Positions 7,143-49,707 of a DNA stretch of 64,000 nucleotides are shown here, one piece after another. The notes under the pieces are model-generated. The model had not been told where the DNA came from, ran no database searches, and was given only the letters and a program-made list of their open reading frames with translations. The stretch is taken from contig JAXLQI010000007.1 of NCBI GenBank assembly GCA_046331685.1, positions 1,862 to 65,861 of the forward strand. The letters run 5' to 3'. This DNA comes from Candidatus Micrarchaeia archaeon. GTDB lineage: Archaea; Micrarchaeota; Micrarchaeia; Anstonellales; Bilamarchaeaceae. Every line of letters begins with the position of its first letter. The stretch's first letter is position 1. A program made the translations under genes and the position numbers.

Positions 7143-7180
7143 GCGCTTATCCTCGGAGAGATCCGGCCCAAAAACAGGTC

Positions 7181-7978
7181 TCAATAGATGACGATGACAG
7201 GCTCATAGTATTTCCTTACATTGCCCCCATAGATCCGGGAGTCGAGCATCCTGCTGAGCTCAGCGCTCGCCTCTTCCCTGGAGCGGTGGAGCCAGCCGAG
7301 CTTCATATTGAGCCTGATGATGCGCCCCGGTATCAGGTGGCGGGTGGATTTGGGAGGCAGAGGCGTGTGGGCCTGCGCGGTCTTGATTATCTCCTCCTTG
7401 GTGTATGAGCGCCTGAAGAAGACGGTCTTCCCGTTCCCGAGCCGTTTCTGTATCTCCTCCTCGGGGGTATATTCAACGACCCCTTTCTCGAGCAAAGAGA
7501 AGATATAGTTCTGCTCCTCGACCATCTCCATCAGCTTGTAGCTGCCCGGGTTGATCAGATGGCATTCCTTATTCTTCCCGACAAGCATGAAGGGGGCTTT
7601 AAGGCTGTTGACAGCCTCGACACCTGCGGCATATTCGACCTTCTCGTGCTTGAGGGAGTCGAGCTTGAATATCTCCTCGGGCTTCAGGGGGACCGAAGGG
7701 TACCAGGTGCCCACCTTTATCTCATCGCTCTTGTAATCGACTATCTGGCATGTGGCGTTGGGGCATTCGATTATCTCGAGGACCTTGAGGCGGTGGTTGC
7801 CGTCGAGGACGACGCCGGTGTTCTTGTCCACGATCATCGGGTCGACCAGCTGGCCGATATTGAGCATGGCCTCTTTCAGCCGCTTGAGGTTGTGCGAGAT
7901 GACCTGCTCGTGGGATAGAAGCGACTTGACTTCGCGTATCTCGAGGTTTTTTATCAGTTCGTCTGCCAGTTCCGACAT
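7181..7978 (-). CDS. ParB/sulfiredoxin-like nuclease domain protein
   Basis: The N-terminus (VLDGNHRLKVLEII) matches the ParB-like nuclease DGxHR motif. There are no partition-like partner genes nearby. Confidence 0.45.
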   Translation of the reverse strand: MSELADELIKNLEIREVKSLLSHEQVISHNLKRLKEAMLNIGQLVDPMIVDKNTGVVLDGNHRLKVLEIIECPNATCQIVDYKSDEIKVGTWYPSVPLKPEEIFKLDSLKHEKVEYAAGVEAVNSLKAPFMLVGKNKECHLINPGSYKLMEMVEEQNYIFSLLEKGVVEYTPEEEIQKRLGNGKTVFFRRSYTKEEIIKTAQAHTPLPPKSTRHLIPGRIIRLNMKLGWLHRSREEASAELSRMLDSRIYGGNVRKYYEPVIVIY

Positions 7979-8079
7979 GAAAGCACTCTAGTTACAAAAG
8001 TTTAAAAACTATCGGAACTCGGTCTGTCGATTGACGTAATCCCATTTTTCCGCAGCCCGGGCGGACGTTCCGCATTACA

Positions 8080-8095
8080 AGCAGATTTTTATATA
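8080..8095 (+). promoter_or_regulatory. TATA-like element TTTTTATATAG upstream of the 8124 gene
   Basis: About 30 nt upstream of the putative transcription start. Confidence 0.3.
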
Positions 8096-8123
8096 GTTTG
8101 ACACATTATATCCATTGATATTT

Positions 8124-8747
8124 ATGGCACTTCTAGACAGGCTCCTGCTCAGAGGCCCTGATGAGATATCGAGGGCCGAAGCCATGAGGGAGTTCAAACG
8201 CCTCATGCCGAAGAGAGGGAGATTCGGCGAGATGCAGGAAAGCGGCATCACCGGATATTACGACAAGAGGTTCGGGCTGTTCGAGCCTTCGCTCGACAGG
8301 TGGGAGGACGGGCATGCAGACGTATTGAAAGCCAATCCCCAGCTGAGGAGGATAGACGCGCTCACAGACGCGCTGTTCCAGGCAGGGAGGTTCGAGCTCC
8401 GCATGGCCGGGCACATCATCTCGGAAGGAAGCCCCCCCAGATACGAGGGAACGGTCGCCGCCATCAGCGTCGCGGACCGGGCCGGGCTGATGAAGGGGAT
8501 GCTCACCCTGGACATAGGGGGAGAGGTGCGGTTCTCCAAGCTCAGGATAGGCACACATCGAGGATCGGATTTCCTGATAAGGCTGAGCGCGCTCGATCAC
8601 GGAATGGCGCTCGGCCCGAACAGGCCCGTCCCAGGAAGGATCCCTGAGACGATACACGAGCGTGCCGCCGAAGGAAGCGAGGTGTTCCAGACGCTTGCCG
8701 AGACTCTGGCCGGCATCGAGCGGATCCTCCGCGGCAAGGCGCTCTGA
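8124..8747 (+). CDS. Hypothetical protein
   Basis: ATG at 8124, preceded by TTTATATA about 38 nt upstream. The antisense ORF 8133..8867 is R/P-rich and probably spurious. Confidence 0.35.
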   Translation: MALLDRLLLRGPDEISRAEAMREFKRLMPKRGRFGEMQESGITGYYDKRFGLFEPSLDRWEDGHADVLKANPQLRRIDALTDALFQAGRFELRMAGHIISEGSPPRYEGTVAAISVADRAGLMKGMLTLDIGGEVRFSKLRIGTHRGSDFLIRLSALDHGMALGPNRPVPGRIPETIHERAAEGSEVFQTLAETLAGIERILRGKAL

Positions 8748-8815
8748 TAGCGGGGAAATCTGGTGGCCCGCGCATCGCCGATAGAGGCTCCTTGGGCGGG
8801 CAAAGTTAACGGGGA

Positions 8816-8886
8816 TGCGACCGCCGCGATTTGAACGCGGGCCGCGAGATTGGCAACCTCGAATCATACCCCTAGACTACGGTCGC
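8816..8886 (-). tRNA. tRNA-Gly (anticodon GCC)
   Basis: Reverse complement reads GCGACCG-TA...CGAGG-TTGCCAA-TCTCG-CGGC-CCGCG-TTCAAAT-CGCGG-CGGTCGC-A. It has a 7-bp acceptor stem, a 5-bp anticodon stem with a 7-nt loop (U33, GCC, A37), a T-arm with TTCAAAT loop and discriminator A. There is no encoded CCA. The D-arm pairing looks non-canonical in my hand fold. Confidence 0.7.
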
Positions 8887-14107: not shown

Positions 14108-14222
14108 GCCAGGTGTTCCAGAACAATGGTTTTAATGGTTCGCTAGGGGCCGCATCCGATTACGCCGATCGCCGCATTCCGCATAAAGCAATTTTAAATT
14201 GTTGGGCAGAAAAAAGAGTTGT

Positions 14223-15824
14223 ATGGCGGGAGCGGCAGAAAGGATATCGGCCAGTTCTATTACTGCGACTTCGTCCAGGCCGGCCCACAACCCGGTCCGC
14301 AATTACCGGCCCTCTTTCGAGAGCATAATCCTCTCCCCGTCAGGCGGAAGCGCAGCAGTGCCCGAAAAACTGGCCGGGGCCCTCGAACACCTGAATTCGT
14401 CTGCGAAGGAAAAAGGGGTCGAGCGCGAGGTGAACCACGTCCTACGCGTATACGCCCGGGATGTCAAGAACGACATAGTGCTCCTCACGATCAAGCGGCT
14501 CGCAGACCTCGTCGACGACCTTCCGAGCGACAGGCTCAGGACCAGGCTCTCCGAGATCCCTCAGCTGATGCGGCAGTTCCCGGAGCTCGCAGACACTGTG
14601 CCGGAGCTGGTCCACAAGACCGAGATGGTCCTTGGCGGGAAGGGGATAACTGTGGATGCGATGCGCAAGATGATCGGCAGGGTGGCCACGAAATCAAACA
14701 GCTTCTGCCCGGTGGAACTTTTCACGACGATGAAGATGGATTACGAGAGCGGGAGCTTCGACAACATCGAGGGGATCGCAGAAGCCCGGGGCGCAGCTCC
14801 GCAGACAGCCACCCTCCCCCAGCCGGTGGCCGCATCCGAGTTCGGGCAGGCCGCCCTGCAGCCTGTCAATGAAAGCCCCCAGCCGTATATGCCCCCGGCC
14901 CAGATCTGGACAGACGACATGAAAAGGAAAGTGGATGAGATAGTCTCAGCCCCGGACCCTGAGATCGTCCGGTCGATAACCGGGCAGACGGCCGATGAGC
15001 GCCCGAAGGACCGGGCCGAGAACCCCCTGCTCACGAAGGCTGCGGCGATTCCGCCGGAGCGGCGGATTCCGCCTCAGCACCTGAAGACTCCCCAGGCCAA
15101 CGCGCCGGCAGAAAAGCCGGACAAGGCCGATGATCCGCGACCGCCGAAGACGGCAGACGGACTTGCGCGGAAGGCTGGAAAGCAGATGAGGGAGAAACAG
15201 GAAGGCCGGCATTCGATAGCTAGCGATAGGATCCCGGAAAAGGCGCCCGAGGCCAAACGGCTGACAGCACCGGAACCGGCAGCGAAGAAGGCTGAGCCGC
15301 AGTCCCGCTCCGGCAGCCTGCGACCGATAAAAAACAAGCGCGTCGGATCGCAGCCGATAATCGCAATCCCCCAAAGGAAAACGCGCCTCAAAGAGGATGG
15401 TCCGGCAAGGAAACCAATGGCTGCGAGGGGCCCTGCTCTCTTCGCTGCGCTGAAGAGGATCAAACTGCCGGCGGGCAAGGCTTCCCCGAAGAAAGATGCG
15501 AGGAAACCCGCGCCGAAGAAATTCAGGGCTGACGTACCGAAAAGGAAAGAAGGCAAGAAGAAGGCCCGTGAGACCGAGAAGAGGAAGCGGGTGCCTGCCG
15601 AAACTCCGGAGCGGAAGTCCCCGAAGGCCAGAAAAAGGAACCGCAAGGATCATGCTCCGGCGACCATCTTCGCCCCGAAAAGACCGATCGGGAGGATCTC
15701 CTGCTTCCCGAGGATTATGGAACCTGAGAGGATCAAGAACGTCAATACAGGGGCGAGAAGGGCGCAACAGAGGAAGGCCCCGGCCTGGAAGAAGGCGTTT
15801 CCGGTCTGGAGAAACGCTTTTTAA
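14223..15824 (+). CDS. Hypothetical protein with long K/R/P/A-rich basic C-terminal tail
   Basis: ATG at 14223 (MAGAAERIS), with AATTTTAAATT about 30 nt upstream. The last ~250 aa are AKP-rich (KKAEPQ...PKKDARKPAPKKFRADVPKRKEGKKKARETEKRKR). Confidence 0.45.
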   Translation: MAGAAERISASSITATSSRPAHNPVRNYRPSFESIILSPSGGSAAVPEKLAGALEHLNSSAKEKGVEREVNHVLRVYARDVKNDIVLLTIKRLADLVDDLPSDRLRTRLSEIPQLMRQFPELADTVPELVHKTEMVLGGKGITVDAMRKMIGRVATKSNSFCPVELFTTMKMDYESGSFDNIEGIAEARGAAPQTATLPQPVAASEFGQAALQPVNESPQPYMPPAQIWTDDMKRKVDEIVSAPDPEIVRSITGQTADERPKDRAENPLLTKAAAIPPERRIPPQHLKTPQANAPAEKPDKADDPRPPKTADGLARKAGKQMREKQEGRHSIASDRIPEKAPEAKRLTAPEPAAKKAEPQSRSGSLRPIKNKRVGSQPIIAIPQRKTRLKEDGPARKPMAARGPALFAALKRIKLPAGKASPKKDARKPAPKKFRADVPKRKEGKKKARETEKRKRVPAETPERKSPKARKRNRKDHAPATIFAPKRPIGRISCFPRIMEPERIKNVNTGARRAQQRKAPAWKKAFPVWRNAF

Positions 15825-32588: not shown

Positions 32589-32764
32589 AAACTTTCCTCC
32601 AAACTTTCCTCCTATTGAACCCCGGTAAAAGTTTGATCAAACTTCAGCCGGTAATACATATCCTCGAGATTCCTCCAAACTTTCCTCCTATTGAACCCCG
32701 GTAAAAGTTTGATCAAACTTCAGCCGGTAATACATATCCTCGAGATTCCTCCAAACTTTCCTCC
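32589..32764. repeat. 76-bp tandem direct repeat (2.3 copies) with embedded 16-bp perfect palindrome and 12-mer micro-repeats
   Basis: Unit tcctccaaactttcctcctattgaaccccggtaaaagtttgatcaaacttcagccggtaatacatatcctcgagat starts at 32595 and 32671, with a partial copy at 32747. The palindrome AAGTTTGATCAAACTT is at 32629..32644 and 32705..32720. The 12-mer aaactttcctcc (reverse complement GGAGGAAAGTTT) occurs at 32589, 32601, 32677 and 32753. Confidence 0.85.
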
Positions 32765-32802: not shown

Positions 32803-34407
32803 TCAGACATTCCCTTCCTCCAAAACCACGTTCACGACCCCTTTCGTGGCCTTCCTCATGCGGACGAGCGAGAAAACAGCGATGAGGTTCTTCTCATCGA
32901 TCCCGAGCTGGCGGAGGAAGGATATTATCGACGGCTTGGAGTATCCGAATTTCTCCAGCACCGCCACAAGCTGCTCTCCGTCCAGGAGGCCGTCCCCCTT
33001 CTCGAACTCGCCTTTGATAAGGTTCAGCTGGCCTTCGGTCAGGCCCATCTCGTAAAGCATCCGCACGAACTGCTCGCGTTCTATCTCGACAATCATTTCC
33101 CCACCTTTTATCTTGTAGATGAGAAGGGGCTCCTCCCCGTCTATCTTGTCCATGAGAAAGGTCATGACCTTGGTCTGCCTCTCCGCGAAGATCATGTTGA
33201 CGGCGGCGTCGCCGACACCGAACTTTGATATCTCCCCGTCTATGAAGCTCGAATACCCTATGGAATTGCGGACATAGTCGCGGAACTCCTTGAGGATGAG
33301 ACGGAGCACGAACACCGAGCCTATGTTGCTGAAGATAGTCTTGTGCATGTCCGTCGGGTTCTGGGTGGCTATGACGAGCGAGAAGTTGTACTTGCGCCCT
33401 TCCCGGACGATCGTGATGACATCGCTCCGCTCGTCCTGCGCGATCTTCCAGGCCTCATCAAGAACGACGAAGAGCCTCACGTGCTTGTTGTCCTTCTGCA
33501 TCCCTTCGAGGCGCATCAGCTCCTTGATATACTGTAGGATCGTCAGGCCCGCGAGGCTGCGCATCTCCTCGCTCGGCAGCTCGTGGAGGTCGATGCAGAC
33601 GAGCCCTGAGCTCGTGAGCTTCTTGATGTCCATCGTCGAAGTGCCTGCGAAGAAATCCGACCCTTCGGCCGTGAAGCGCTTGAGGAGCCTTGCCGCCTTC
33701 TTCTTGCCCCATTTCTCCAGGACCCAGACGACATTCGAGAGCGTGGGCTTCTCTACCCGCCCGTCCTTGGCCAGCTCGACAAGGACATCCTTCACGTCGC
33801 CTGCCTTGAGCTTGCCCGCAGACTTCTTCATGCGCTTCTCGGCCTCGACCAGCTTGAGGTTCTCCTTGAGCGTCGGGTGGGCTGTGCCTGCCTTGTAATA
33901 GACGTATTCCAGGGCCTCCTCTATGTCGTCCCTCTCGTTCGGGTAGCTTTTCAGGTCCAGAAGGACGTCTAGGGCGGAGACTATCTGCTTGATCCGGCTC
34001 CGTTTCGGAAGCCCGACAAGGTCCAGTATGTTCAGCCTCTCCCTGGCGAGGTTGATGACGCGCCCTCCGGCCTGCCTCACCCATGTGTCATACTCGCCCA
34101 CCCAGTCGAGGATGATGGCGTTGGTGTCCCAGATCAGGGATGCCCTTGTGAGGAATGTCTTGACCGTGTATGATTTTCCCGAACCTGTGATCCCGATGAT
34201 CGCGATATGCGGATTGATGAGCTTGCTCGGATCCCAGAACACAGGCGTGCGGAGGAAGCGCGTCTTCCCGATATAGACTCCCTGCGTAGGGGGCGAGAGG
34301 AGGAGCTCCTTCCGTGGCTCTGGAGGATGCACAAGTATCATCTTGCGCGCGACCTCTTTGGAAAGCATGTAGGAAGATTTCAGGCCCATCTTTGCGCCCC
34401 ACCTCAT
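32803..34407 (-). CDS. HerA/FtsK/VirB4-superfamily (DUF87-like) P-loop ATPase
   Basis: Walker A IAIIGITGSGKSYTVK. Walker B LFVVLDEAWKI. FSLVIATQNP. There is a short N-terminal region before the P-loop, a large K/E-rich helical insertion and a ~110-aa C-terminal extension. Confidence 0.65.
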   Translation of the reverse strand: MRWGAKMGLKSSYMLSKEVARKMILVHPPEPRKELLLSPPTQGVYIGKTRFLRTPVFWDPSKLINPHIAIIGITGSGKSYTVKTFLTRASLIWDTNAIILDWVGEYDTWVRQAGGRVINLARERLNILDLVGLPKRSRIKQIVSALDVLLDLKSYPNERDDIEEALEYVYYKAGTAHPTLKENLKLVEAEKRMKKSAGKLKAGDVKDVLVELAKDGRVEKPTLSNVVWVLEKWGKKKAARLLKRFTAEGSDFFAGTSTMDIKKLTSSGLVCIDLHELPSEEMRSLAGLTILQYIKELMRLEGMQKDNKHVRLFVVLDEAWKIAQDERSDVITIVREGRKYNFSLVIATQNPTDMHKTIFSNIGSVFVLRLILKEFRDYVRNSIGYSSFIDGEISKFGVGDAAVNMIFAERQTKVMTFLMDKIDGEEPLLIYKIKGGEMIVEIEREQFVRMLYEMGLTEGQLNLIKGEFEKGDGLLDGEQLVAVLEKFGYSKPSIISFLRQLGIDEKNLIAVFSLVRMRKATKGVVNVVLEEGNV

Positions 34408-34447
34408 TAATCATTCTTCTCGATGATATATAAACTTGCGCCGGCGC

Positions 34448-37400
34448 TCACTTCTTCTCCTTCCTACGCCTGTAGTAGAGGAAAGCCAGTATGACCAGGA
34501 TGACAGCGATCAGGAGCCAGACCGGCCAGATTTCAAGGGGCGAGGAGACGGCTGGCTTCCCTTGATCCCCAGAGGCGGATCTCGGCAGGACGTTGATGAA
34601 GACCTCCTTCACCACCTTGCCGTCCTTGAGCAGCGTGACCTTTATCTTGCCGCTGATCGAAGCCGGAACCTGGACGTTCCCGTTCTCGTCAGGAGCCGCA
34701 TCGAATTCCCTGCCGTCAGGCGTGGTGATCTTCGCCGTGCAGTTCTGGCCGGGCCCGCATGCCTTGTCGTTCTCGGTCAGCAGGCAGGTCTTGTTGTCGC
34801 CCACTACCGCGGTCGAGGGGCAGGTTATGTCATTGGAAAGGCACTTGTGCTCGACGCAGGACCTGCCCTGGGGGCACTGGGGGCAACCGGATTCGTTCCC
34901 GCATTCATAGCCATATGGAACGAACCTGTGGCCTTTCGCCGCGCCGCACTGCCCGGTGATGTCCCTGCATGCGCCGCCGGCGGCTCCGGGAGGTATGTCG
35001 CATGCCTGGCTGTCCTTGCACTGGGCATCCGAGGTGCATCCGAAAGACTCCTTGCATTTGTGGTCAGGAGAGCAGGCCTGGCCGGATGGGCACATCGAAT
35101 CCGAGCAGCATCCGAACGCGAGGCAGGCATGGCCGGTTATAACGCCGCAGGGACAGCTCACCGGGATGCACTGGCCTCCGGTGCAGCTTTTCTCCGAAGG
35201 GCATTCCGAATCGTTGGCGCAGGCCGGGAGGCATTCCGCGCACGATAAGAGAGCTGCTGATGCGGATGCGGAGTAGTATCCGCTTCCCGAAGCGTGGATC
35301 GTCACCGTCTTGCCGCAGCCGTCGAAAGATGCCTTTCCGCCGCCGTCGGTAGGGCCGATTGGATCGCCGTCGACCTTGACGTCGATGCCTGCGATCGGGC
35401 TGCCAGAGCTCCTCACCGTCACGGTGTTGCCGGAGCAGGAGCTGTTGATGGAAAGCGAGAGCGAGCCGGAGTTCTCCCCGCCGCCCTGAGGAGGCAGGAT
35501 GAACAGGCCGTAGATGTCATCGGCTGTGATGTTCGAAAGGGCCGGAGCCGAGAGGGTGTTGGAAGGGGCCGCGAGAGCCTGGCCCGGCGTGACCAACCAT
35601 CCGCTCATATTCCAGGTATAGAGCTGGATCGAATCCTCGGTCTGACCGGACGCCTCGAGATCGCTCCAATGGAACGCGAGGGAGTCTATGGCCGGCTCTC
35701 CGGTGAAATTGACCTTTAGGTATTTCCCAGCGAACGATGAGCGGTTCTCCGGAGACTGGCCGGGGGACGACGTGTCGTTGATCTGGTAGCCGCCGTTGAG
35801 CGTGTCGTTGAGCGAGATGTTGACAGATCCCGAGCCGAGCTTCGAGTTCACTATCCGCAGGAGAGGGGAACCGGTGAATGGCTTGGACTCCGCTATCTCC
35901 CAGCCGTTCCCGTAGAACCATGAATTGTAGATCCATGTCGCCGTGACGTTCGCACCCTTCTCGTAGATGCCAAACGCGTTCTGGTAGGCGGTGTTGTTCA
36001 AGAAGGTCGTGTTCCTGCTCATGTTCACCAGGTAGCCTGCATCGGCATTGTCATGCGCGATGTTCCCGATCAGGCTGTTGTTGGTCGAGAGGCCGCTCCC
36101 GGGCGACGGGGGCGGAGGGGGCGGGGCGAGGGATCCGCTCCGCAGGCGGAGAAGAGGCGCGGAGAGGCTCGCTGACCGCGGCCCCTTCACTGATATCCCG
36201 CAGTCGACCGGGCAGGTGATGAATGTCTCCCCGAGGAGGGGCTCGCAGATGAAGTTCCCGCAGGAGCTGCCTCCGGAAGTCGAGTTGGTCCCGTGGAGGA
36301 GGAATCCGTTCCTGGAGTTGGAGTATGCAGTGTTGCCGCTCAAGCTGTTGTTGCTCGCGATGAAAAGCTCGAAGCCGTTCATCGCGTTCTGGTAGGCGGT
36401 GTTCCCGGCGAGCAGATTGTTGTGCGCATTGCCTCCCGAAGTCGGGGGCGCCGGGGAGAGGCTGGCGGTCGTCCGCGCCGGGGCTGTGAAGATCGGCGGG
36501 GCGCTCGAATTCGACCCTTCGAGGAAGAAGCCGTCCCTGGCATTGCCGTACGCCGTGTTGCCGGAAAGGTTGTTATTGTCGCTTATGAAGAGGTGGAAGC
36601 CGTTCATGGAGTTGTTGCGGGCGGTGTTGCCGGACAGCGAATTATGGGAGGTGATCAGGACCGGGCTGTCGTTCACCAGGAAGCCGTCCTTGCTGTTCTG
36701 GTAGGCAGAGTTGCCGTCCAGGCTGACGAAGGAGCTGGAAAGCACGGCGAACCCGTTCCCGCCGTTGGAGTAGGCCGTGTTCCCGCTGATGTTGTTGTTA
36801 TTAGAGACGAGAAGCTGGAGGCCTCCTGCAGAATTGTTGTAGATGGAATTCCCGGTGATGTTGTTCGCCGGGCTGAACTGCAGGTTGAGGCCCAGGTTGC
36901 TGTTGCCGTGGATGTTGTTCTGCCTGATGGCGCTGGACGAGACGAACTGCAAAAGGAACGGCAACGAGCCTGTCATGTTGGTGATATTGTTGCCCGATAT
37001 TATGTCAGATGATTCCGATGAGGCGATCAATCCGACGTTAGGGCATGAAGAGAGGTAGTTGTCCGTGAAATTATTGAAGGAGCTGCTGAGGAGGTAAACG
37101 CACGCGTCGCTGTTGTTGTAGATAGTGTTGAGGGTGAGGCCGTTGCCATCCGAGCCGCTCTGGAGCCTGAGGCCGCCGATGTTGGAGTAGATCTGGGAGC
37201 CTGATACCGTGTTCCCGTCGCTGTCGGTGAGGAAGATGCCGACCCGGTCATCGTGGGCGATATTGCCGGCAAGGTTATTGCCGTCGCTATTGTCCAGGTA
37301 GAATCCGCCGTCGAAGAACCCCGGGCCCGAGTTTGAGAATGCCGAGTTGCCGGAAAGGTTATTGCCGCCGCTGGAATGCAGATAGAATCCCCTCGCATTG

Positions 37401-38050
37401 CCGTAGGCGGTGTTGCCGCTGAAGCTGTTATTATCCGAGCCCGAGTCAAGATGGAAACCATCGCCGAGATTGCCGTAAGCGGTGTTGTTGACGAACGTCC
37501 CGTTCACTCCGTCGCTGAGAAAGAATCCCTGATAAGGTGCGAGAGGGGGCGGGAAGCCGGGCGCCCTGGAGATGTCATGAACCGTATTCCCTATGAACGC
37601 CGAATCCAGGGAGCTCGTGCCATAACCGATGCCGTAGAGGGTGCCGTTCCAGACCGTGTTGTTCTGGAACAGGCTGCTGTTCACCACCGAGGCTGCGATA
37701 CCGACGTCAAAGCCGGAGATGGCGCAGTTTTTCACCGTGATATTGGTCAGAGGGGCCGACGGAGGGAGGTTGTCTACCACGATTGCGCCAGAAGGCACTG
37801 AAAGATTGGTTTGTTTCGTGATAGAGAAGCCCATGCAGTCCAGCACGACGTTGGAGGAGGTTATCCTGATGCATGAGGCTGATCCGGCGATCGCGACGTT
37901 GGGATTGGGCGAGCCGATCAGGTTGCCGAGCAGGAAATACGAGCCGCTGGCGGTGATGTTGACGCATGAGGCGATGCCTCCAGGCGGCGGCGTAGCGATC
38001 GAAAAACCGGCCAGGAGCACCAAAACCGAGATAAGGACAGAAAGTCGCAT
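34448..38050 (-). CDS. Giant (1200 aa) secreted parallel beta-helix (PbH1/NosD-like) repeat protein with Cys-rich stalk and C-terminal TM anchor
   Basis: Signal peptide MRLSVLISVLVLLAGFSIA. Dozens of ~22-aa repeats (NNLSGNTAYGNARDGF, NSLSGNTAYSNS...). A ~230-aa segment carries ~38 Cys. Ends WLLIAVILVILAFLYYRRRKEKK. Confidence 0.65.
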   Translation of the reverse strand: MRLSVLISVLVLLAGFSIATPPPGGIASCVNITASGSYFLLGNLIGSPNPNVAIAGSASCIRITSSNVVLDCMGFSITKQTNLSVPSGAIVVDNLPPSAPLTNITVKNCAISGFDVGIAASVVNSSLFQNNTVWNGTLYGIGYGTSSLDSAFIGNTVHDISRAPGFPPPLAPYQGFFLSDGVNGTFVNNTAYGNLGDGFHLDSGSDNNSFSGNTAYGNARGFYLHSSGGNNLSGNSAFSNSGPGFFDGGFYLDNSDGNNLAGNIAHDDRVGIFLTDSDGNTVSGSQIYSNIGGLRLQSGSDGNGLTLNTIYNNSDACVYLLSSSFNNFTDNYLSSCPNVGLIASSESSDIISGNNITNMTGSLPFLLQFVSSSAIRQNNIHGNSNLGLNLQFSPANNITGNSIYNNSAGGLQLLVSNNNNISGNTAYSNGGNGFAVLSSSFVSLDGNSAYQNSKDGFLVNDSPVLITSHNSLSGNTARNNSMNGFHLFISDNNNLSGNTAYGNARDGFFLEGSNSSAPPIFTAPARTTASLSPAPPTSGGNAHNNLLAGNTAYQNAMNGFELFIASNNSLSGNTAYSNSRNGFLLHGTNSTSGGSSCGNFICEPLLGETFITCPVDCGISVKGPRSASLSAPLLRLRSGSLAPPPPPPSPGSGLSTNNSLIGNIAHDNADAGYLVNMSRNTTFLNNTAYQNAFGIYEKGANVTATWIYNSWFYGNGWEIAESKPFTGSPLLRIVNSKLGSGSVNISLNDTLNGGYQINDTSSPGQSPENRSSFAGKYLKVNFTGEPAIDSLAFHWSDLEASGQTEDSIQLYTWNMSGWLVTPGQALAAPSNTLSAPALSNITADDIYGLFILPPQGGGENSGSLSLSINSSCSGNTVTVRSSGSPIAGIDVKVDGDPIGPTDGGGKASFDGCGKTVTIHASGSGYYSASASAALLSCAECLPACANDSECPSEKSCTGGQCIPVSCPCGVITGHACLAFGCCSDSMCPSGQACSPDHKCKESFGCTSDAQCKDSQACDIPPGAAGGACRDITGQCGAAKGHRFVPYGYECGNESGCPQCPQGRSCVEHKCLSNDITCPSTAVVGDNKTCLLTENDKACGPGQNCTAKITTPDGREFDAAPDENGNVQVPASISGKIKVTLLKDGKVVKEVFINVLPRSASGDQGKPAVSSPLEIWPVWLLIAVILVILAFLYYRRRKEKK

Positions 38051-38158
38051 CCAGGTTCTTCACGGCAGAGATTAATAAAGTTTCAATCCCGGCGCCTCTC
38101 CTTGCTAAAGGGAGCAGCCCGGAGCGATAGGAGAAAATAGCCCATGGCTCCGCAGCGC

Positions 38159-39001
38159 TCAGAACAGGGCGTCCTTGATCTCTTCCTGCGTTGTCGGGAA
38201 GAAGAATTCCCATTCGAAGCATTTGAGCATCTCAAGGTCGGCGAGGTCGCGGACATCGCAGCCTAAGGAGCTGGAGAGTATCGTCTTGAGCTCCTTGGCT
38301 TGCCTGCTCACCCGGCTCAGCGCTTCGTCGCGCGTCAGGCCGAAGGCGGTCGTGGTCGCGAACGCGATCACTTCCACCGGGCGCTCACCCTGGGTGATGC
38401 GGTCGAGGAGGCGGTTCCAGTAGGCGAGCTCACGGTCCATCCTCATGCTCTCATCGACCGCGATCTTGGACTCTTTGGCCTTCTTCGCCTCCACCGCCCC
38501 TCTCCTGGTCTTGATCTCGTCGATGTGCTTGGAGAGGTCTAGGGTGCTTATCATCAGCGTCACCTTGACGATATATTTGAGGGAGCTGATGGCTTTCTCG
38601 AAAGACTCGAACATCGTCTTCTTCTCGTCCTGGTTCTTGTCCATCGAGCTCTCGTAGAACCTGACCTCTAGGAACTTCGAGGCGAAATAACCCGCCTCGT
38701 TCTTCTTTATTATATAATCGCGGGAAGGCGGGACCTCATAGCCGCCCTGGACTTCCACGATGTTGGTGGCCTTCGTGATCACAGGGATTATGAGATAGCC
38801 GTATTTCCAGAGCGCTATCGAGAGGAGGAAGAAAACGGACGCGATGATCGGGAATATCGGGTTCCCGTAGACCAGTGATATGACGATGCAGACCACCCCT
38901 CCTATGAGGGATCCTGCGGTCACGGCACGATTGATGAACATATACCATAAATCGGTTATGGGATTTAAAAAACCGCTACCAGCCCATCCAGGTCTTCCCA
39001 A
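38159..39001 (-). CDS. Membrane protein (2 N-terminal TM helices + charged coiled-coil cytoplasmic domain)
   Basis: TTG start per ORF track; an internal ATG (MFINRAV...) at 38931 is an alternative start. TM helices SLIGGVVCIVISLVY and IIASVFFLLSIALW. Confidence 0.4.
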   Translation of the reverse strand: MGRPGWAGSGFLNPITDLWYMFINRAVTAGSLIGGVVCIVISLVYGNPIFPIIASVFFLLSIALWKYGYLIIPVITKATNIVEVQGGYEVPPSRDYIIKKNEAGYFASKFLEVRFYESSMDKNQDEKKTMFESFEKAISSLKYIVKVTLMISTLDLSKHIDEIKTRRGAVEAKKAKESKIAVDESMRMDRELAYWNRLLDRITQGERPVEVIAFATTTAFGLTRDEALSRVSRQAKELKTILSSSLGCDVRDLADLEMLKCFEWEFFFPTTQEEIKDALF

Positions 39002-39188
39002 GCCTCCAGGTGAGATAAAGAGACAGTGCGGTCCAGAGGATCACAAGAGGGATGAAAAGACCCGGTACATATCCTGAAACGAGGCCGGCCGCGAGATAGC
39101 CGGCCGCGACGATTATGAGGAGAAGCACGATCTGCGCCTCCTGGTCCACAGAGACGCCTAAAACCGTGCGGATTTTTTCCAGGGGCAT
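38976..39188 (-). CDS. Small 2-TM membrane protein (~70 aa)
   Basis: Internal-Met start 5 nt after the stop of the upstream gene: MPLEKIRTVLGVSVDQEAQIVLLLIIVAAGYLAAGLVSGYVPGLFIPLVILWTALSLYLTWRLGKTWMGW. Confidence 0.35.
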   Translation of the reverse strand: MPLEKIRTVLGVSVDQEAQIVLLLIIVAAGYLAAGLVSGYVPGLFIPLVILWTALSLYLTWRLGKTWMGW

Positions 39189-39192
39189 GCGA

Positions 39193-40284
39193 TCATATGC
39201 TCGCGATGGTCCGGAGCCCGATCTCGCTGCCGAGTATGTTCGCGAGCTCCTTGACGAAGACGATCGTGATGATGAGGGAGAAGATCGGGGCGATGACCGC
39301 GTAGAGCAGCGATTTCGAGAGGGTGCTGCTGTTGCTCTGGGCAATCCGTGTTATGTCGCTGCTGAAATCGATCGTGACATTGTTGTAGACGCTCTGGGTG
39401 CCGTTCGTGCTGTTGTTCAGGGTGAGGTTGTACTGGCCCTGGAGGAAATCGTCGCAGAGCGTCGTCGTGTTGGAGACGTTGGTCTCGTTGGTGATGTTGA
39501 ACCTCGAGGGATCGCACCTTCCGGAGAGGATGTCGAGCTTCCCGGCGATCGCATAATCTCCGTTGAGGTCCACGATCGGCAGGGTGGCATAATAGCTGTT
39601 GTTCGTGAAATTCACCACCGCCGCAGTCGAGTTGTTGAGATCGTTCTCCGGGTTGGGGAAGACGAGGACGAAGGTCGGATAGAACACGAAGAGGCCGATC
39701 GAGAGGGCTATGAGGAAGCCTCCGACCTTCCTCGTGGCGAAGAAAGTCCTGAGGACGAGCCCGACCGGGAATAGCAGGCCGAGGGCGTTCTGCCCTATGA
39801 ACGTGGCGATCTGGCTGTTGAGGCCGACGAGGATCATGATCCAGTTTATCGAAAGGAGCTGGAGGGAGAGGGTGTTCGACACCGAATCGAGGTTATGGAA
39901 CGGCGAGATCGAGAACGACCCGAAATCGAGCGAGAGGGTCTGGTAGTACGCGAGGATGTTTATCATGTTCACGAGTTCCTGGAACAGGCGGAAGAGGGAG
40001 ACGTTAAGCCGGTCGAGGGTGCAGCTGAGCTGGAAGATGACGTTCCCGGTGGAGCAAGAATCGTTCACGACGTTAGAGCTTACGACCCCCACCAGCTCTA
40101 TGATCGCCGCGAAGGATCCGATGATAGCTGCGTTGATCATGGACTGGATGAGCTCCTCGATGCCGAAGACCTCGATCCTCTTGTATCCGGTCGCGCGGCC
40201 GATGCCGACCAGTATGCCGGCGAGGACAATGGACGCGGTGACGACTATCACGGCTATCTCGACACCGACAAATGACTCAGCCAT
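39193..40284 (-). CDS. Polytopic (about 6 TM) membrane protein with large N-glycosylated extracellular loop
   Basis: Five N-terminal TM helices. Then a ~130-aa loop with 12 NxS/T sequons (NST, NFT, NNS, NIT, NET, NVS, NTT, NLT, NNS, NGT, NVT, NSS). Then a final TM helix LLYAVIAPIFSLIITIVFV. Confidence 0.5.
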   Translation of the reverse strand: MAESFVGVEIAVIVVTASIVLAGILVGIGRATGYKRIEVFGIEELIQSMINAAIIGSFAAIIELVGVVSSNVVNDSCSTGNVIFQLSCTLDRLNVSLFRLFQELVNMINILAYYQTLSLDFGSFSISPFHNLDSVSNTLSLQLLSINWIMILVGLNSQIATFIGQNALGLLFPVGLVLRTFFATRKVGGFLIALSIGLFVFYPTFVLVFPNPENDLNNSTAAVVNFTNNSYYATLPIVDLNGDYAIAGKLDILSGRCDPSRFNITNETNVSNTTTLCDDFLQGQYNLTLNNSTNGTQSVYNNVTIDFSSDITRIAQSNSSTLSKSLLYAVIAPIFSLIITIVFVKELANILGSEIGLRTIASI

Positions 40285-40324
40285 CGGGAAAGATACTTGG
40301 CCTGATATTAAATAGATTGCGGGG

Positions 40325-40873
40325 TCATGGTGCCGGAGGGATCGCGGGGCTGGAGCCCGGCGGGAGGGTCACGAATATGTAGAGGAGGATGAGGGCGAGG
40401 AGGATCCCCGGGAGGACGACCAGGGCGAGGGCGGAGCGCCAGAGAGGGATCCTGTGGACCCGTGCCGAACCGATGACGACATTCGAGAGCGAGATGAAGA
40501 CCGCGGCGATCCCCAGGAACGGGATCCCTCCGAAGACCAGAGAGACGGTGTTGCCGTAGATGAAGACCGAGACCGATTCGGAGAGCCGCGCATGGCCGCC
40601 GACCAGCTTGAGCAGGAGGTGCTGGACTGCGAAGATCAGATAGGACAGCATGAGCGATATGACGAGCGATGACGGGACCGAGAGCATGGCCTGGATCAAT
40701 GTCCCGCCGAGTGCCCCCACGGCGAGATCGATGGGGACCGAAAGCAAAAGGCAGAGGACAAGATGCGCCGCCGAATCGTTGAATCCGTCCCCTCCTGCGA
40801 GGGAATCGAACCGCTCGGCCGGGACGAAGAGGATGTTCTCCCGTATCCTGTCGAATCTGCCACGCAGGTCCAT
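40325..40873 (-). CDS. Multi-TM membrane protein (Yip1-like topology)
   Basis: 182 aa, 4-5 hydrophobic helices, Pro-rich C-terminus. Overlaps the end of the thioredoxin-like gene by 1 nt. Confidence 0.4.
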   Translation of the reverse strand: MDLRGRFDRIRENILFVPAERFDSLAGGDGFNDSAAHLVLCLLLSVPIDLAVGALGGTLIQAMLSVPSSLVISLMLSYLIFAVQHLLLKLVGGHARLSESVSVFIYGNTVSLVFGGIPFLGIAAVFISLSNVVIGSARVHRIPLWRSALALVVLPGILLALILLYIFVTLPPGSSPAIPPAP

Positions 40874-41979
40874 CAGCCAAATGTGAATGTGTAAATCCTA
40901 AAACCTTTGCCATGGACCTCGATGGTCAATGTCTGGGGGGAGTAATCGGCCTTGTCTATGAGGCTGTAGAGCCTCAGGTCGCCTGTATGCGCGAGCGCGG
41001 AGCCATCCGAGATCCCAGCATCCGGCCCGAGCTGGGAGGGTTGCGGGACCGACCCGTCCAGCTTCAGCCCCAGCGTGGAGTCCCCTCCGCAGACAATGTT
41101 GAGGTTCTTCGCCTGGAAATTCAGCACTATCTTCCCTGAGTCGGAAACGAGCTCCATGTTGTCCTCGTTGTTCTTCCACGATCCTTCCAGATACACAAGA
41201 TTGGGCTCGACCGAGGGGGGGAGGGCGTAGCTGACGACCTGCCCCGCGCTGAATCCCTCCGGATTGCCGAGGGGGGCGCGGGCGAAACCGCTGCCGAGGT
41301 AGATCTCAGGAGTCCCGAGCCTCGTGAAATCCACTCTCGGGGAACTGACATTGCCTGAGACCAGGGACCCCATCCCGGTCTTGTTGTCGCGCTCTGAAAG
41401 AAGCTTCCGTATCTCCTGCTCGGTCTCCTCATACCCGCCTTCGCCGATGTGGTCGTAACGTATGAAGCCGTCGGAATCGATGAGATATTTGTGAGGCCAG
41501 TAGCGGTTGCCGTAAGCGGTCCATGTGGCATAATCGTTGTCCTGGACCACAGGATACCTGATGCCGAACTTCCGGACGGCCTTCTGCACGTTATCGCGGT
41601 CTTTCTCGAACTCGAACTCCGGGGTCTCGACACCGATGATGACAAGCCCCTTGTCACGGTACATCTCATCCCAGGCCGTGAGATATGGCAGGGTCCTTAT
41701 GCAGTTGATGCACGAGTATGTCCAGAAGTCCACGAGGATGACTTTGCCTTTGGCGTCCGACAGCCTGAACCCGTCCGGAGCATTTATGTATCCGGATATC
41801 CCGCTCAGCTCCGGCGCTTTCTGGAGGATCGCGGCCTTCTTGGCGAGGTCCCCCGAATCGTTGCCTTTTGCGAAGTCCGACCTAACCTGCGCCTTGGCCG
41901 ACATGACGAAGAGGATCGCGACCGTTATCAGCGCTACCGCGATCCCGAATGCGAGCGGGCTGTTCCTTTTCAGTTCCAT
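40873..41979 (-). CDS. Membrane-anchored thioredoxin-like (TlpA/ResA-type) thiol:disulfide oxidoreductase with ~200-aa C-terminal extension
   Basis: N-terminal TM anchor. The VILVDFWTYSCINCIRTLP redoxin CxxC motif is in a TlpA-like context. Confidence 0.7.
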   Translation of the reverse strand: MELKRNSPLAFGIAVALITVAILFVMSAKAQVRSDFAKGNDSGDLAKKAAILQKAPELSGISGYINAPDGFRLSDAKGKVILVDFWTYSCINCIRTLPYLTAWDEMYRDKGLVIIGVETPEFEFEKDRDNVQKAVRKFGIRYPVVQDNDYATWTAYGNRYWPHKYLIDSDGFIRYDHIGEGGYEETEQEIRKLLSERDNKTGMGSLVSGNVSSPRVDFTRLGTPEIYLGSGFARAPLGNPEGFSAGQVVSYALPPSVEPNLVYLEGSWKNNEDNMELVSDSGKIVLNFQAKNLNIVCGGDSTLGLKLDGSVPQPSQLGPDAGISDGSALAHTGDLRLYSLIDKADYSPQTLTIEVHGKGFRIYTFTFG

Positions 41980-41983
41980 TGCA

Positions 41984-42694
41984 TCACTTCAGCAGAAGGT
42001 CGTTGACCGGGGCGAAATTCGCCACGAGGGGCAGGGTCCCTGTGAAGACAAGTATCCCCAGGATCACGAGAATGATGCCGAATGCAGTATCAAGCCATCC
42101 GATATACGGGCCGAGCGCCTTAATTGCTTTCCCTGCCCGCGAGACGAAAAGGCCCACTAGCAGGAACGGCACCCCGAGCCCGAGCGAATAGCTGAGCATC
42201 AGCGGGAATGCGACGGCCGGATTTGTGACCGCGAGCGTGAGGATCCCTCCGAGCACCACGCCAACGCAGGGCGTCCAGCCCACTGCGAACGCGGCGCCGA
42301 AGAGGAATGATGCGAGGTAAGATGGGCTGCCGGCCTTCATGTTCAGCCCCCTTCCGGCTTCGAGGGATTCTATGCGGATGATCCCGATCATCATCAGGCC
42401 GAAGAAGATGATTATCACGCCTCCGACATAGCCGAGGAACGCCTGCAAATCGTAGGCTATCCCGGAAAGCACGCTCTGGAGCAGCACACCCACAACAGAG
42501 AAGATCAGCGAGAAGCCGAGCACGAACGAGACGCTGCTTAGGAATATCTTCGTGCGGAGCTCCGGTGAGTATTTCTCCTGCACGCTCGTGCCGGCCAGGA
42601 AGGTCAGGTATGCCGGTATGAGCGGAAGGACGCACGGGCTGAGGAACGACACGAGACCGGCGAAGAAAGCGAGGAAGATGGAGAGGTCTGCCAA
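41984..42694 (-). CDS. ccdA: Cytochrome c-type biogenesis protein CcdA (DsbD-like thiol-disulfide transporter)
   Basis: LSPCVLPLIPAYL and GWTPCVGVVLG, the two conserved Cys of CcdA/DsbD beta domains. 6 TM. Confidence 0.85.
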   Translation of the reverse strand: MADLSIFLAFFAGLVSFLSPCVLPLIPAYLTFLAGTSVQEKYSPELRTKIFLSSVSFVLGFSLIFSVVGVLLQSVLSGIAYDLQAFLGYVGGVIIIFFGLMMIGIIRIESLEAGRGLNMKAGSPSYLASFLFGAAFAVGWTPCVGVVLGGILTLAVTNPAVAFPLMLSYSLGLGVPFLLVGLFVSRAGKAIKALGPYIGWLDTAFGIILVILGILVFTGTLPLVANFAPVNDLLLK

Positions 42695-47436: not shown

Positions 47437-49707
47437 ATGCGACGTTCGTCAGCTCTTCTGCTCGTGCTTGTACTGTTCCTCGGCTTCGGCTGCATCAGCG
47501 AGACCAGATATGACAGCAAGAACACCGAGCAGCTCGCCAATACCCAGTCCGCCGATCTGGACAACGACGGCAGCCCGGATTACCTCGTGTACGATTACTC
47601 CCCGGTCAGCGTTGCGAATTCCGGCATGAAGCTCCAGCGCCAGATCACAGTAAGCGTGGACAGCGGCGGGAGCTTCACCGGCGTCAATCCGAACCTCACA
47701 GATGTCGATCTCCTGGTGGCGGACCAGAGCCTCGAGGAGTTCTCGAAATCAAGGCAGCAGGCCGACAGCGCGTGCAGCGCGAACATCGGCCTCAGCAACG
47801 TCGTCTGCTCGGACATCACCACCTGCAGCAAGCTCTGCTCGAGCGCTTCGCCGAAATGCAGGAAGATCGCTTCATCCTACGAGGAAGCCCTCGCCGGTAA
47901 CATGATAGACTACGTGTCGGCCAACAACCAGATAAGGAGCCTCCTCCTGGATGCGCGGAAGAGCATCCTCGACCTCCGGAACTCCTCGGATGAGCAGAGG
48001 AACGAGTTCTACGGGAAGCTGCGCTCCATAGTGTCGAAAGTCGCGGAGATCAACGCCAACCCGATCTACACAGACTCCGACCTGGGGCTGTGCTCGCATT
48101 CGGATTTCGGCGTCCCTTCCATAACCGAGGCCGCGGACAAGATTGGCCCGCATTCGAACGAGAATTCGAGCTACCTCTACAAGGTCGTCATATCAGTCAA
48201 GCCTGTCTCCGCCGACGCAGGATCCGATGTCGGCGGCGTCTCGGTCACGGACAGGATGCCGAAAGGCTCGATACCGCAGTCCGAGGAGCAGCTCCGCTCC
48301 CTCCAGCCGATCTCGGTCTCCGAGAGCGGAAACGATGTGGACGTCGTCTGGAGCTCCTCGAAGAGCAACCGCGAGGGATACGTGTTGTATTACTCGTTCC
48401 GGTCCAACGACGCCCCCGACACGGTGCTGGCCTCGCTCCGGAGCCCTGACCTGAAGGTCAGGACGCTCAACCTCGCTTTCCTCGCGCCGACAAAGGCACT
48501 GTTCAACCTCGTCTATGGCATTGGCGGCAATTATTACATCGCCCTCGGCACCGCGCTCGCCCTGACTCTCGCGCTCATCCTGCTCGCTTACAACTTCCTC
48601 GTCCTCGTCTTCACCATGGTGAGCGAGCGGGCTGCCGGCATGAACGTCACGGTAGCGTTCCGGAAGGCTTTCGGCAGGACCGACGTGAAATGGAAGACCG
48701 ACATGGTCGTGGCCATCCTTTTCATAGGAGCCGGAGTATACGTGGCATCCACGATGGCGCAGCAGCCGGCATCGGTCCCGGCGCTCACAGAGACGCTGGA
48801 CTTCCTCCTCAAGAGCGAATGGGGGATCGTCGCGATCGGCCTAGTCCTGATCGGGGTCCTCATGGCTTATTTCGCGATAGAGAACTTCGCGAAGATCACG
48901 ATGCTGGAACGCGTGTACGGCATGGTCATCCGCCAGGAGAAAGACATGTTCCTCGCCAAAGCCGCAACCCTCAAGGACAAGATCAAGGAGCTCGAGGCGC
49001 TGATCGAGGAGTACACAAAGGACGACTTCGACGTCTCGAAGGAATATGACCTCCTCACATCCATGAAGTCCGAGAAGATAGACTCCATATCCAAGGAGAT
49101 GACCGCACGGACCAAGACAGTGATCGAGGACAACCTGAGCAAGGTCGAGAGCGCTGTTTCCGGGCTCCGGGAGAAGAAGAAGATTGCCGACGACAACTGG
49201 CCCAAATGGAAGGAGAGCATCGCCAAGATGCTGGATGAGCAGGACGAGGTCTACACCTCATCACTGATCACAGTCCCGAGCTCGCTCCGCTCGTGGGCCC
49301 TCGGAAGGTTCGTCCGGGAGGAAGGCTCCGAAGGCATCACATTCGAAAGGGACTCCCTCAAGAAGAGGAAGGTCACCCCCGCCCAGCTTGTGCAGGAGAT
49401 GATCGCGAAAGGGCTGATCAGGGGGGCGATAGTCCTGAAGCAGGATAAGGTCGTGATCGCCGAATTCTCCGAGGGGAGCAGCACGCTCATGACCGCCCTC
49501 GCACTGAAGCTGAATTCGTATGCCCAGTCGCTGGGCAAGAACCTCAGCCTGAGCCCGCCGCAGAGCATCGTCACCGTCGGAGAGAAACGGGTGATGGTCC
49601 TCATGAAGAGCAGGAGCGTGGATTCCGTCCTTTTCCTCGGCAAGGACAGGTTCAACGAAGCGATCGAGCAATGGAAAGCGAAGATCAAGATATTCGAGGC
49701 CGGCTGA
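47437..49707 (+). CDS. Lipobox-containing extracellular protein with internal TM segments and C-terminal coiled-coil
   Basis: LLVLVLFLGFGC signal/lipobox. Cys-rich patch (CSDITTCSKLCSSASPKC). Hydrophobic helices around aa 370-480. Confidence 0.45.
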   Translation: MRRSSALLLVLVLFLGFGCISETRYDSKNTEQLANTQSADLDNDGSPDYLVYDYSPVSVANSGMKLQRQITVSVDSGGSFTGVNPNLTDVDLLVADQSLEEFSKSRQQADSACSANIGLSNVVCSDITTCSKLCSSASPKCRKIASSYEEALAGNMIDYVSANNQIRSLLLDARKSILDLRNSSDEQRNEFYGKLRSIVSKVAEINANPIYTDSDLGLCSHSDFGVPSITEAADKIGPHSNENSSYLYKVVISVKPVSADAGSDVGGVSVTDRMPKGSIPQSEEQLRSLQPISVSESGNDVDVVWSSSKSNREGYVLYYSFRSNDAPDTVLASLRSPDLKVRTLNLAFLAPTKALFNLVYGIGGNYYIALGTALALTLALILLAYNFLVLVFTMVSERAAGMNVTVAFRKAFGRTDVKWKTDMVVAILFIGAGVYVASTMAQQPASVPALTETLDFLLKSEWGIVAIGLVLIGVLMAYFAIENFAKITMLERVYGMVIRQEKDMFLAKAATLKDKIKELEALIEEYTKDDFDVSKEYDLLTSMKSEKIDSISKEMTARTKTVIEDNLSKVESAVSGLREKKKIADDNWPKWKESIAKMLDEQDEVYTSSLITVPSSLRSWALGRFVREEGSEGITFERDSLKKRKVTPAQLVQEMIAKGLIRGAIVLKQDKVVIAEFSEGSSTLMTALALKLNSYAQSLGKNLSLSPPQSIVTVGEKRVMVLMKSRSVDSVLFLGKDRFNEAIEQWKAKIKIFEAG

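Follow-up and report, generated by a model that had tools for sequence, protein, structure and literature searches.

A probable type IV secretion-derived translocation module with a split CedB/VirB4 motor in the chromosome of Micrarchaeota

Results and Discussion

A conserved four-gene module

The 64,000 nucleotides analyzed here (the window) are part of contig JAXLQI010000007.1 from a Candidatus Micrarchaeia archaeon (assembly GCA_046331685.1, positions 1,862 to 65,861). The minus strand of the window harbors a conserved unit of four co-directional genes, which encode the polytopic membrane protein p363, the membrane-anchored protein p260, a P-loop ATPase and the cytoplasmic protein p239 (Table 1). 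This locus is probably a chromosomally fixed, minimal translocation apparatus derived from type IV secretion systems (T4SS) and related in kind to the archaeal Ced and Ted systems, with a VirB4/CedB motor that Micrarchaeota have split in two. p260 is a homologue of the N-terminal part of CedB/VirB4 and the ATPase matches the C-terminal portion; taken together, the two constitute a split CedB/VirB4. Judged from its sequence, the module appears to be a variant of the Ced/Ted/T4SS type outside Thermoproteota, with a transported substrate that can be suggested by analogy.

The initial annotation of the window had proposed a chromosomal Ced/T4SS-like apparatus composed of an ATPase and membrane partners. 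This proposal is supported by the CedB/VirB4 matches, the identification of p260 as the N-terminal half, the linkage to pilins and the conserved synteny described below. All of the open reading frames (ORFs) it named are present in the ORF list on the minus strand. The composition of the module had to be revised, however. p363, p260 and the ATPase are co-directional members of the postulated five- to six-gene unit, whereas the β-helix protein, the 70-aa ORF and the Yip1-domain protein are not conserved parts of it, and p239 had been missed.

To map the neighborhood, one genome per GTDB species was scanned, which yielded 148 relatives, and the best 80 loci were used. All of these belong to Micrarchaeota, Micrarchaeia, Bilamarchaeaceae or Anstonellales, or to metagenome-assembled genomes (MAGs) labelled Candidatus ainarchaeum or 'archaeon'. 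Locus counts given here refer to contigs of sufficient length to show the genes in question. On this basis p260, the ATPase and p239 occur together on one strand in nearly all of the 80 loci, and p363 was detected with them in about 50. Such a gene order goes far beyond what chance would produce.

p260 and the ATPase correspond to the two halves of CedB/VirB4

The translation of the ATPase contains the motifs GITGSGKS and VVLDEAW, and Pfam assigns the domains DUF87 and AAA_10, which supports the proposed placement in the FtsK/HerA/VirB4 superfamily. As the homologues begin at M7 of the annotated ORF, the true start is likely the downstream one listed in Table 1. The best NCBIfam matches were CedB (91.3 bits), VirB4 CD1110 (81 bits), CedD (67.3 bits) and VirB4_plasma, the VirB4 of mycoplasma integrative and conjugative elements (65 bits); the HerA models followed behind these with 39-52 bits. 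The P-loop is located at residues 72-79, about 220 residues nearer to the N-terminus than the Walker A motif of the CedB-like protein in locus L083 (around residue 300). The ATPase has hundreds of close homologues. The best 120 share 67-93% identity, and the named ones are nearly all from Micrarchaeota-type MAGs. One homologue, from Candidatus Bilamarchaeum dharawalense, is annotated as 'DNA import protein CedB'.

p260 had been annotated with 280 aa (38159..39001). An identical database protein and nearly all of about 120 homologues are listed with approximately 260 aa (248-274 aa), which places the real start 20 codons later, at position 38941. Direct scans of p260 against Pfam and NCBIfam retrieved no family at E<=0.01, and its profile found no relevant match among PDB sequences. 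The AlphaFold model (predicted local distance difference test, pLDDT, 71.5) shows a transmembrane (TM) hairpin and, behind it, an α/β domain that includes a helical hairpin, and its best structural match is TrwK, the VirB4 of plasmid R388.

A search of the p260 profile against 1.84 billion representative proteins returned 157 proteins only. Among these is a 603-aa CedB-like protein, which was matched over residues 17-230 (E 7.5e-6); hhalign supported this relationship with a probability of 90% (E 1.7e-6). The 603-aa protein covers the CedB model end to end (221.7 bits), and a near-identical member of its cluster (P0517) is located in a cedA1-cedA-cedB operon. In the same protein, residues 252-571 are covered by the alignment with the ATPase profile. 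Thus, p260 and the ATPase are collinear on one CedB-like chain. Weak matches of 26 p260 family members point to the same families, with CedB found in 14, VirB4_plasma in 10 and VirB4 CD1110 in 6 of them. The p260 of the window matches VirB4 CD1110 at model positions 229-282, ahead of the P-loop region that is matched by the ATPase (from about position 392 onward). The features that define a VirB4-type ATPase, namely an N-terminal domain (NTD), a P-loop domain and membrane association, are therefore found in p260 and the ATPase taken together.

The separation of the two halves is kept in every locus examined, and in 20 loci whole genes lie between them. This indicates that the split is ancestral and reflects neither a frameshift nor an assembly artefact.

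Homologues of p260 were also observed in the cultivated Micrarchaeote ARM-1, which carries two tandem paralogues of 280 and 278 aa (L086, positions 7156-8837; ARM1_0478 and its upstream neighbor). No ATPase or p363 homologue is adjacent to them, and a ParA/MinD gene is located 2.7 kb downstream. The tandem pair recalls the published idea that the NTD of CedB and that of CedD jointly correspond to one VirB4 NTD.

Conservation and chromosomal setting

In the clade of the window, the module is located between the same housekeeping genes, encoding a PHP-domain protein, a 96-aa protein, ThiF, an ion channel and a β-CASP RNase. In a deep clade, whose ATPases are 42-46% identical to that of the window, p260 and p239 are kept, and so is p363 wherever it could be detected. 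In 51 of 71 loci p260 and the ATPase are direct neighbors, with a gap of <260 nt. Mean identities to the window, computed over the 17 loci with a complete gene set, were 81.5% for the ATPase, 79.2% for p260, 73.7% for p239 and 63.4% for p363, compared with 69.1% for β-CASP, 59.4% for ThiF and 56.8% for PHP. The motor pair thus evolves more slowly than its housekeeping neighbors.

The window has a GC content of about 59% and a single tRNA, and the source contig carries the locus tags U0R44_06425 and U0R44_06435 for proteins matching those of the window. A family-B DNA polymerase, gyrase A and B, purD, the CCA-adding enzyme and Nramp are also encoded. The presence of the polymerase, both gyrase subunits, purD and the CCA-adding enzyme nearby, together with the preserved flanking synteny, indicates a chromosomal context.

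Linkage to VirB2-type pilins

A distant homologue of p260 was found in Candidatus Marsarchaeota, where all four conserved genes have homologues. The cluster (L084) encodes, in this order, a 120-aa pilin (m120), a 349-aa homologue of p363 (67.9 bits), a 238-aa homologue of p260 (50.7 bits), a 379-aa homologue of the ATPase (135 bits against the ATPase profile) and a 219-aa protein. The last of these is homologous to p239 (E 1e-7, small database). m120 matches the Pfam families T4SS_pilin (25.8 bits, E 1e-5) and TrbC/VirB2 (E 2e-3).

Homologues of this pilin are encoded directly upstream of p363 in four Micrarchaeota loci (L061, L065, L067 and L073) and nearby in another (L074), and two to four copies precede p260 in L077, L078 and L081. 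The pilin alignment shows a signal peptide ending in A-F-A-Q, two hydrophobic helices and a charged loop. A profile built from m120 and its Micrarchaeota homologues had R388 TrwL/VirB2 as its top PDB match (E 6e-4); hhalign against CedA1 was not significant. No ORF of the window matched the pilin profile significantly; linked pilins are a feature of the homologous clusters, and a pilin gene may be located elsewhere in this genome.

Downstream of the Marsarchaeota genes (L084, 10491-13989) three further proteins are encoded, of 271 aa, 105 aa (a membrane protein) and 740 aa (a second DUF87/HerA-like ATPase). The second ATPase might represent a component similar to CedD or to a coupling protein. 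Near the Micrarchaeota module, no counterparts of the three proteins were found.

p363 and p239

p363 possesses five strong hydrophobic segments and an extracellular loop of about 100 residues (residues ~215-320) that is dense in N-x-S/T sequons. The loop varies in length among homologues and is always rich in sequons. The description of p363 as a polytopic membrane protein with a large, glycosylation-prone loop is thereby borne out. Its proposed resemblance to VirB6 could be retained in part only: p363 is polytopic and aligns weakly to TrwI, and it lacks a significant match to VirB6, TrbL or CedA. Pfam and NCBIfam scans gave nothing relevant even at E<=10, including no match to CedA or CedE, and the p363 profile found no relevant PDB sequence. 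Taken together with its Marsarchaeota homologue, p363 was not significantly similar to one CedA sequence or to the pilin alignment in hhalign. The structural model consists of long helices (pLDDT 73.6; predicted template modelling score 0.68). Foldseek found no PDB structure at E<=0.001 for it, the top matches being TTYH channels with TM-scores of about 0.2. The evidence for a VirB6/CedA identity of p363 is therefore suggestive at most.

p239 is cytoplasmic; an N-terminal α/β region is accompanied by a coiled coil and, at the C-terminus, a winged helix. Ten of 18 members gave EAP30/Vps36-type winged-helix matches, with 7.8e-6 as the best E, and a few gave TrmB/IclR helix-turn-helix (HTH) matches. 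Against PDB sequences, the p239 profile gave coiled-coil noise and a weak winged-helix match only. The gene is located directly 3' of the ATPase gene in nearly all related loci.

The p239 gene borders directly on the ATPase gene or overlaps with it in several relatives (by 8 nt in L002), whereas the two are separated by 215 nt in the window. This unusually long spacer is explained by the tandem duplication listed in Table 1. Its copies are 100% identical, contain the short palindrome AAGTTTGATCAAACTT and occur nowhere else in the window. The duplication may be a very recent event or an assembly artefact.

The ATPase also carries a conserved helical C-terminal extension of about 110 aa (residues ~425-534; window 32803-33130). 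It contains two helix-rich repeats, including FGYSKPSIISFLRQLGIDEKNLI, is partly kept in the Marsarchaeota ATPase and retrieved nothing from the PDB sequences. The ATPase further contains a lysine-rich insertion of roughly 35 residues (residues ~175-215; window 33760-33880); it is shared with some close relatives only (P0010 and P0037) and absent from most others.

Table 1. Features of the module and its immediate surroundings in the window, in order of transcription
Feature	Position	Strand	Remarks
Yip1-domain protein, 182 aa	40325..40873	-	Yip1 domain; outside the module
p363, polytopic membrane protein, 363 aa	39193..40284	-	Candidate VirB6/CedA/TedA-like channel subunit
70-aa ORF, two hydrophobic helices	38976..39188	-	Lineage-specific
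p260, N-terminal TM hairpin and cytoplasmic α/β domain, 260 aa	38159..38941	-	CedB/VirB4 N-terminal half
β-helix surface protein, 1200 aa	34448..38050	-	Accessory, between p260 and ATPase
P-loop ATPase, FtsK/HerA/VirB4 superfamily, 528/534 aa	32803..34407 (likely start 34389)	-	Motor half
Perfect 76-bp tandem duplication, 2.2 copies	32594..32764	.	ATPase-p239 spacer
p239, cytoplasmic protein with coiled coil and winged helix, 234 aa	31883..32587	-	Downstream partner of the ATPase

Neighboring genes outside the module

The β-helix protein harbors Beta_helix/NosD repeats, a signal peptide, 40 sequons and a C-terminal TM anchor; 28 of its 40 cysteine residues are located within a stalk at residues 937-1104. 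The initial annotation had described a secreted β-helix protein with a cysteine-rich stalk. The repeats, a signal peptide and a cysteine-rich stalk were found, but the TM anchor indicates a protein that is anchored in the membrane and not freely secreted. Its suggested membership in the module as an adhesin did not hold. The gene occupies the slot between p260 and the ATPase only in the window and in locus L003, and in L042, whose ATPase is 93% identical to that of the window, no insert is present. It is therefore considered an accessory, lineage-specific insertion. An integral adhesin of the system was rejected, as the slot holds unrelated genes or nothing in other loci.

In about 20 of 71 loci, 0.6-7.6 kb of heterogeneous, unrelated genes fill the slot. 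In Bilamarchaeum the insert encodes an α/β-hydrolase-type protein according to Pfam matches. Others, read by eye, encode a cysteine-rich surface protein (L007), an HTH-like repeat protein (L011), a cysteine-rich enzyme-like protein (L030) and a P-loop protein (L057). The slot acts as an insertion hot spot within an otherwise rigid operon. Several of the inserts have the appearance of large anchored surface proteins, namely the β-helix proteins of the window and L003, the cysteine-rich protein of L007 and a 946-aa protein in L019.

The small two-TM protein of 70 aa, which had been counted as part of the module, is absent from almost all related loci and not detectably pilin-like. Most related loci have only 20-70 nt between p363 and p260, too little for a gene; the ORF is thus lineage-specific, with a comparable small ORF only in L009. 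The 70-aa protein had no Pfam match, and the ORF containing it had no NCBIfam match. A role as a VirB2/CedA1 pilin was rejected because the protein is not conserved, matches no family and is not significantly similar to the VirB2-like pilin profile (E 3-13).

The Yip1 gene had likewise been included. Its start codon overlaps the stop codon of the upstream thioredoxin gene, which encodes a thioredoxin/redoxin fusion (368 aa), and together with this gene and that for a DsbD-like membrane protein it forms a tightly packed unit immediately upstream of the module on the minus strand (40325-42694). This redox unit is patchy in relatives, with thioredoxin and DsbD in L003, L004 and L011 and Yip1 in L017, L019, L020 and L030. 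The start/stop coupling places Yip1 in the redox operon and, with this patchiness, rules it out as a component of the module.

Three large ORFs on the plus strand of the window, of 936, 541 and 756 aa (9011-11821, 14199-15824 and 47437-49707), showed no Pfam family at E<=1e-5.

Proposed function and alternative explanations

In a T4SS-derived apparatus of this kind, the hairpin of p260 would reside in the membrane, and its VirB4-NTD-like cytoplasmic domain would dock the separate ATPase, presumably a hexamer, beneath the membrane. p363 as a glycosylated polytopic protein would form the membrane conduit, in the position of VirB6, CedA or TedA, and p239 may act as an adaptor in the cytoplasm and bind either the substrate (DNA) or the motor. 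The deeper relatives would use a VirB2-type pilin from the same operon, and the clade of the window, which has no linked pilin, might depend on direct cell-cell contacts. The likeliest substrate would be DNA transferred between cells, by import as in Ced, and this would suit a host-dependent archaeon. That p363 is the channel and p239 an adaptor is inferred, and so are the substrate and the direction in which it is transported.

In a broader proposal, the split-VirB4 machine would be a core host-interaction conduit of Micrarchaeota, derived by domestication of a conjugation apparatus, pilus-less in this clade and used for uptake of host DNA or nucleotides or for gene exchange at contact sites. 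This is conceivable, though it seems doubtful to us. If true, it would represent a DPANN counterpart of the chromosomal T4SS of Patescibacteria, which has been reported to be essential for epibiotic growth. In that case, Ced/Ted-type systems would also be an ancient archaeal trait and not a crenarchaeal speciality.

Several findings weigh against the interpretation as a Ced/Ted-like translocation apparatus. The matches of the ATPase to the CedB and VirB4 models of NCBIfam are partial and far under the curated equivalog cut-offs (700 bits for CedB, 600 for CedD, 330 for CedA and 100 for CedA1). For the ATPase domain alone, a defence-type HerA model scores about as high (89.5 bits) as CedB, and the family placement therefore rests on the partner proteins. 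Among these, p363 could not be matched significantly to CedA, CedE, VirB6/TrbL or pilins by sequence or profile, and TrwI, its longest structural alignment, is one of many helical-bundle matches. The structural models are only moderately confident (pLDDT 71-74). A VirB2-like pilin could be detected neither in the 64-kb window nor within the ±10 kb flanks of about 58 closer relatives. The unusually high conservation would equally fit a housekeeping role. Finally, the module is not linked to a relaxase, coupling protein, nuclease or recombination gene, and nothing ties the system specifically to DNA.

The last point bears on the cargo. The same T4SS-like apparatus might transport proteins or effectors, or scavenged host nucleic acids or other macromolecules, and thus act as a feeding or host-manipulation conduit, in analogy to the chromosomal T4SS of Patescibacteria, for which a cargo other than DNA has been proposed. 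Micrarchaeota belong to DPANN and live in association with hosts, the conservation of the module exceeds that of its neighbors, as would be expected of a function essential for their lifestyle, and relaxase, nuclease and recombination genes are missing at the locus. Moreover, effector secretion has been proposed for giant surface proteins of nanohaloarchaea that contain VirB4/TraG-like ATPase domains. However, the closest characterized relatives, the Ced systems, import DNA, and the operon lacks conserved genes for effector-like proteins or chaperones. We consider such a cargo unlikely; this alternative differs from the favored explanation in its cargo only, and sequence cannot distinguish between substrates. 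A different machine would be a housekeeping, membrane-anchored DNA pump of the FtsK/HerA type that acts in segregation or division, with p239 as an adaptor at the division site and the pilin linkage being secondary. Such a pump would be in line with a core chromosomal gene set of conserved synteny and very high conservation, the lack of a pilin in the clade of the window, the ATPase's membership in the FtsK-HerA superfamily and the resemblance of the C-terminal winged helix of p239 to those of the ESCRT-II/CdvB type. It is nevertheless highly improbable, since p260 is specifically CedB/VirB4-like, the homologous clusters start with VirB2-type pilins, the glycosylated polytopic partner suggests an envelope-spanning function and the FtsK_SpoIIIE match of the ATPase is marginal (21.3 bits, below the Pfam cut-off of 24).

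The ATPase also matches several HerA models of PADLOC, the best being the defence-type model mentioned above, as well as solved structures of defence HerA proteins, and variable genes gather in the slot between p260 and the ATPase. Both could be expected of a HerA-type anti-phage defence system or an integrated conjugative or mobile element, to which we assign the lowest likelihood of all explanations weighed here. p260, p363, p239, the 70-aa ORF and the β-helix protein had no match in PADLOC, and no effector nuclease, Sir2 or similar protein is encoded nearby. As the matches concern only the ATPase and are of the generic HerA type, the defence system was rejected. A mobile element is contradicted by the fixed location of the module, which is flanked by the same housekeeping genes and keeps its place in the chromosome in many of the 80 species loci. 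The codon-position GC content (GC3) of the module is similar to that of its neighbors, and no relaxase, coupling protein or integrase was found among the scanned proteins of the window. The module has no relatives in IMG/VR, which gives no support to a viral or mobile origin. The initial view of a chromosomal and not a conjugative system, based on the lack of an integrase and a relaxase, is thus upheld. The ATPase might also have turned out to be a bona fide HerA repair helicase without conserved membrane partners or neighborhood. Its partners are conserved, and its scores for the HerA repair models are far below the cut-offs (HerA_Thermprot, 47.3 versus 800 bits; helicase_HerA, 39.5 versus 970 bits).

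Comparison with known systems

The module shares the P-loop ATPase fold and DUF87 with the HerA-NurA helicase. It differs in that NurA, Mre11 and Rad50 are missing from the neighborhood: the conserved partners are membrane proteins, the other neighbors are housekeeping genes, and none encodes a nuclease. The likeness to the core of bacterial T4SS is broader, as p260, p363 and the linked pilins have their best or longest matches in TrwK/VirB4, TrwI/VirB6 and TrwL/VirB2 of R388, respectively. Sequence similarity is at the detection limit, however, and the module lacks VirB1, B5, B7-B11, VirD4 and a relaxase, is placed in an archaeal envelope and has a split VirB4. With the relaxase-less T4SS of Patescibacteria it has in common that it is chromosomal, conserved and present in an ultra-small symbiont.

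Among the archaeal systems, Ted of Thermoproteales is resembled by the clusters of Marsarchaeota and deep Micrarchaeota, which follow the tedC-tedA pattern of a pilin followed by a polytopic protein, with the ATPase encoded further downstream in the same operon. The signal peptides of these pilins end in an A-x-A/Q-type motif as in TedC. In contrast, TedB is an unsplit VirB4-like protein according to the literature (Ted components were compared by description), and the clade of the window has neither a linked pilin nor ParA/VirC1, Rad50 or HerA neighbors in the window.

The Ced system found in Sulfolobales and Desulfurococcales (CedA, CedA1, CedB and CedD) is likewise chromosomal, 'domesticated', T4SS-derived and devoid of a relaxase. 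It combines a polytopic membrane protein with a motor of the HerA/VirB4 superfamily that is made up of a TM segment, an NTD resembling that of VirB4, and an ATPase domain. In Micrarchaeota the TM and NTD part and the ATPase are encoded by separate genes, a CedA1-type pilin is missing from the module, and the C-terminal extension of the ATPase and p239 are additional. The host belongs to DPANN and not to Thermoproteota. The module is not a Ced system in the strict sense: its CedB and CedD scores are far below the cut-offs and p363 has no CedA match. In locus L083, which served as a positive control, CedA reached 176.6 bits, below its cut-off of 330 bits, and the CedB-like protein 221.7 bits. 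CedB and CedD are described as proteins with TM helices, a VirB4-like NTD and a HerA/VirB4-type ATPase domain; the TM helices are thought to stand in for VirB3/VirB8, and it has been proposed that both proteins together reconstitute a VirB4. The split VirB4 echoes this proposal and offers a clean system for studies of the cooperation between NTD and motor. As the cultivated ARM-1 carries p260 homologues, part of this idea is open to experiment.

In the literature Ced and Ted are described as crenarchaeal systems, with Ced regarded as specific to Crenarchaeota, and the authors of the pilus structures stated that nowhere else had a conjugation apparatus been reported to be domesticated for the transfer of DNA. 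Full-text searches retrieved no paper that links Micrarchaeota with CedB or type IV secretion, DPANN with a Ced-like system, or either of them with VirB2- or VirB6-type systems; co-occurrence of DPANN and VirB4 was limited to the work on nanohaloarchaeal giant proteins and incidental mentions, and a recent study of 163 Micrarchaeota genomes does not mention secretion, pili or conjugation. What is new here is a Ced/Ted-like, T4SS-derived module with a naturally split VirB4 that is chromosomally fixed in a DPANN phylum and also present in Marsarchaeota. It represents a molecular candidate for the long-standing question of how reduced, host-dependent archaea exchange material with other cells.

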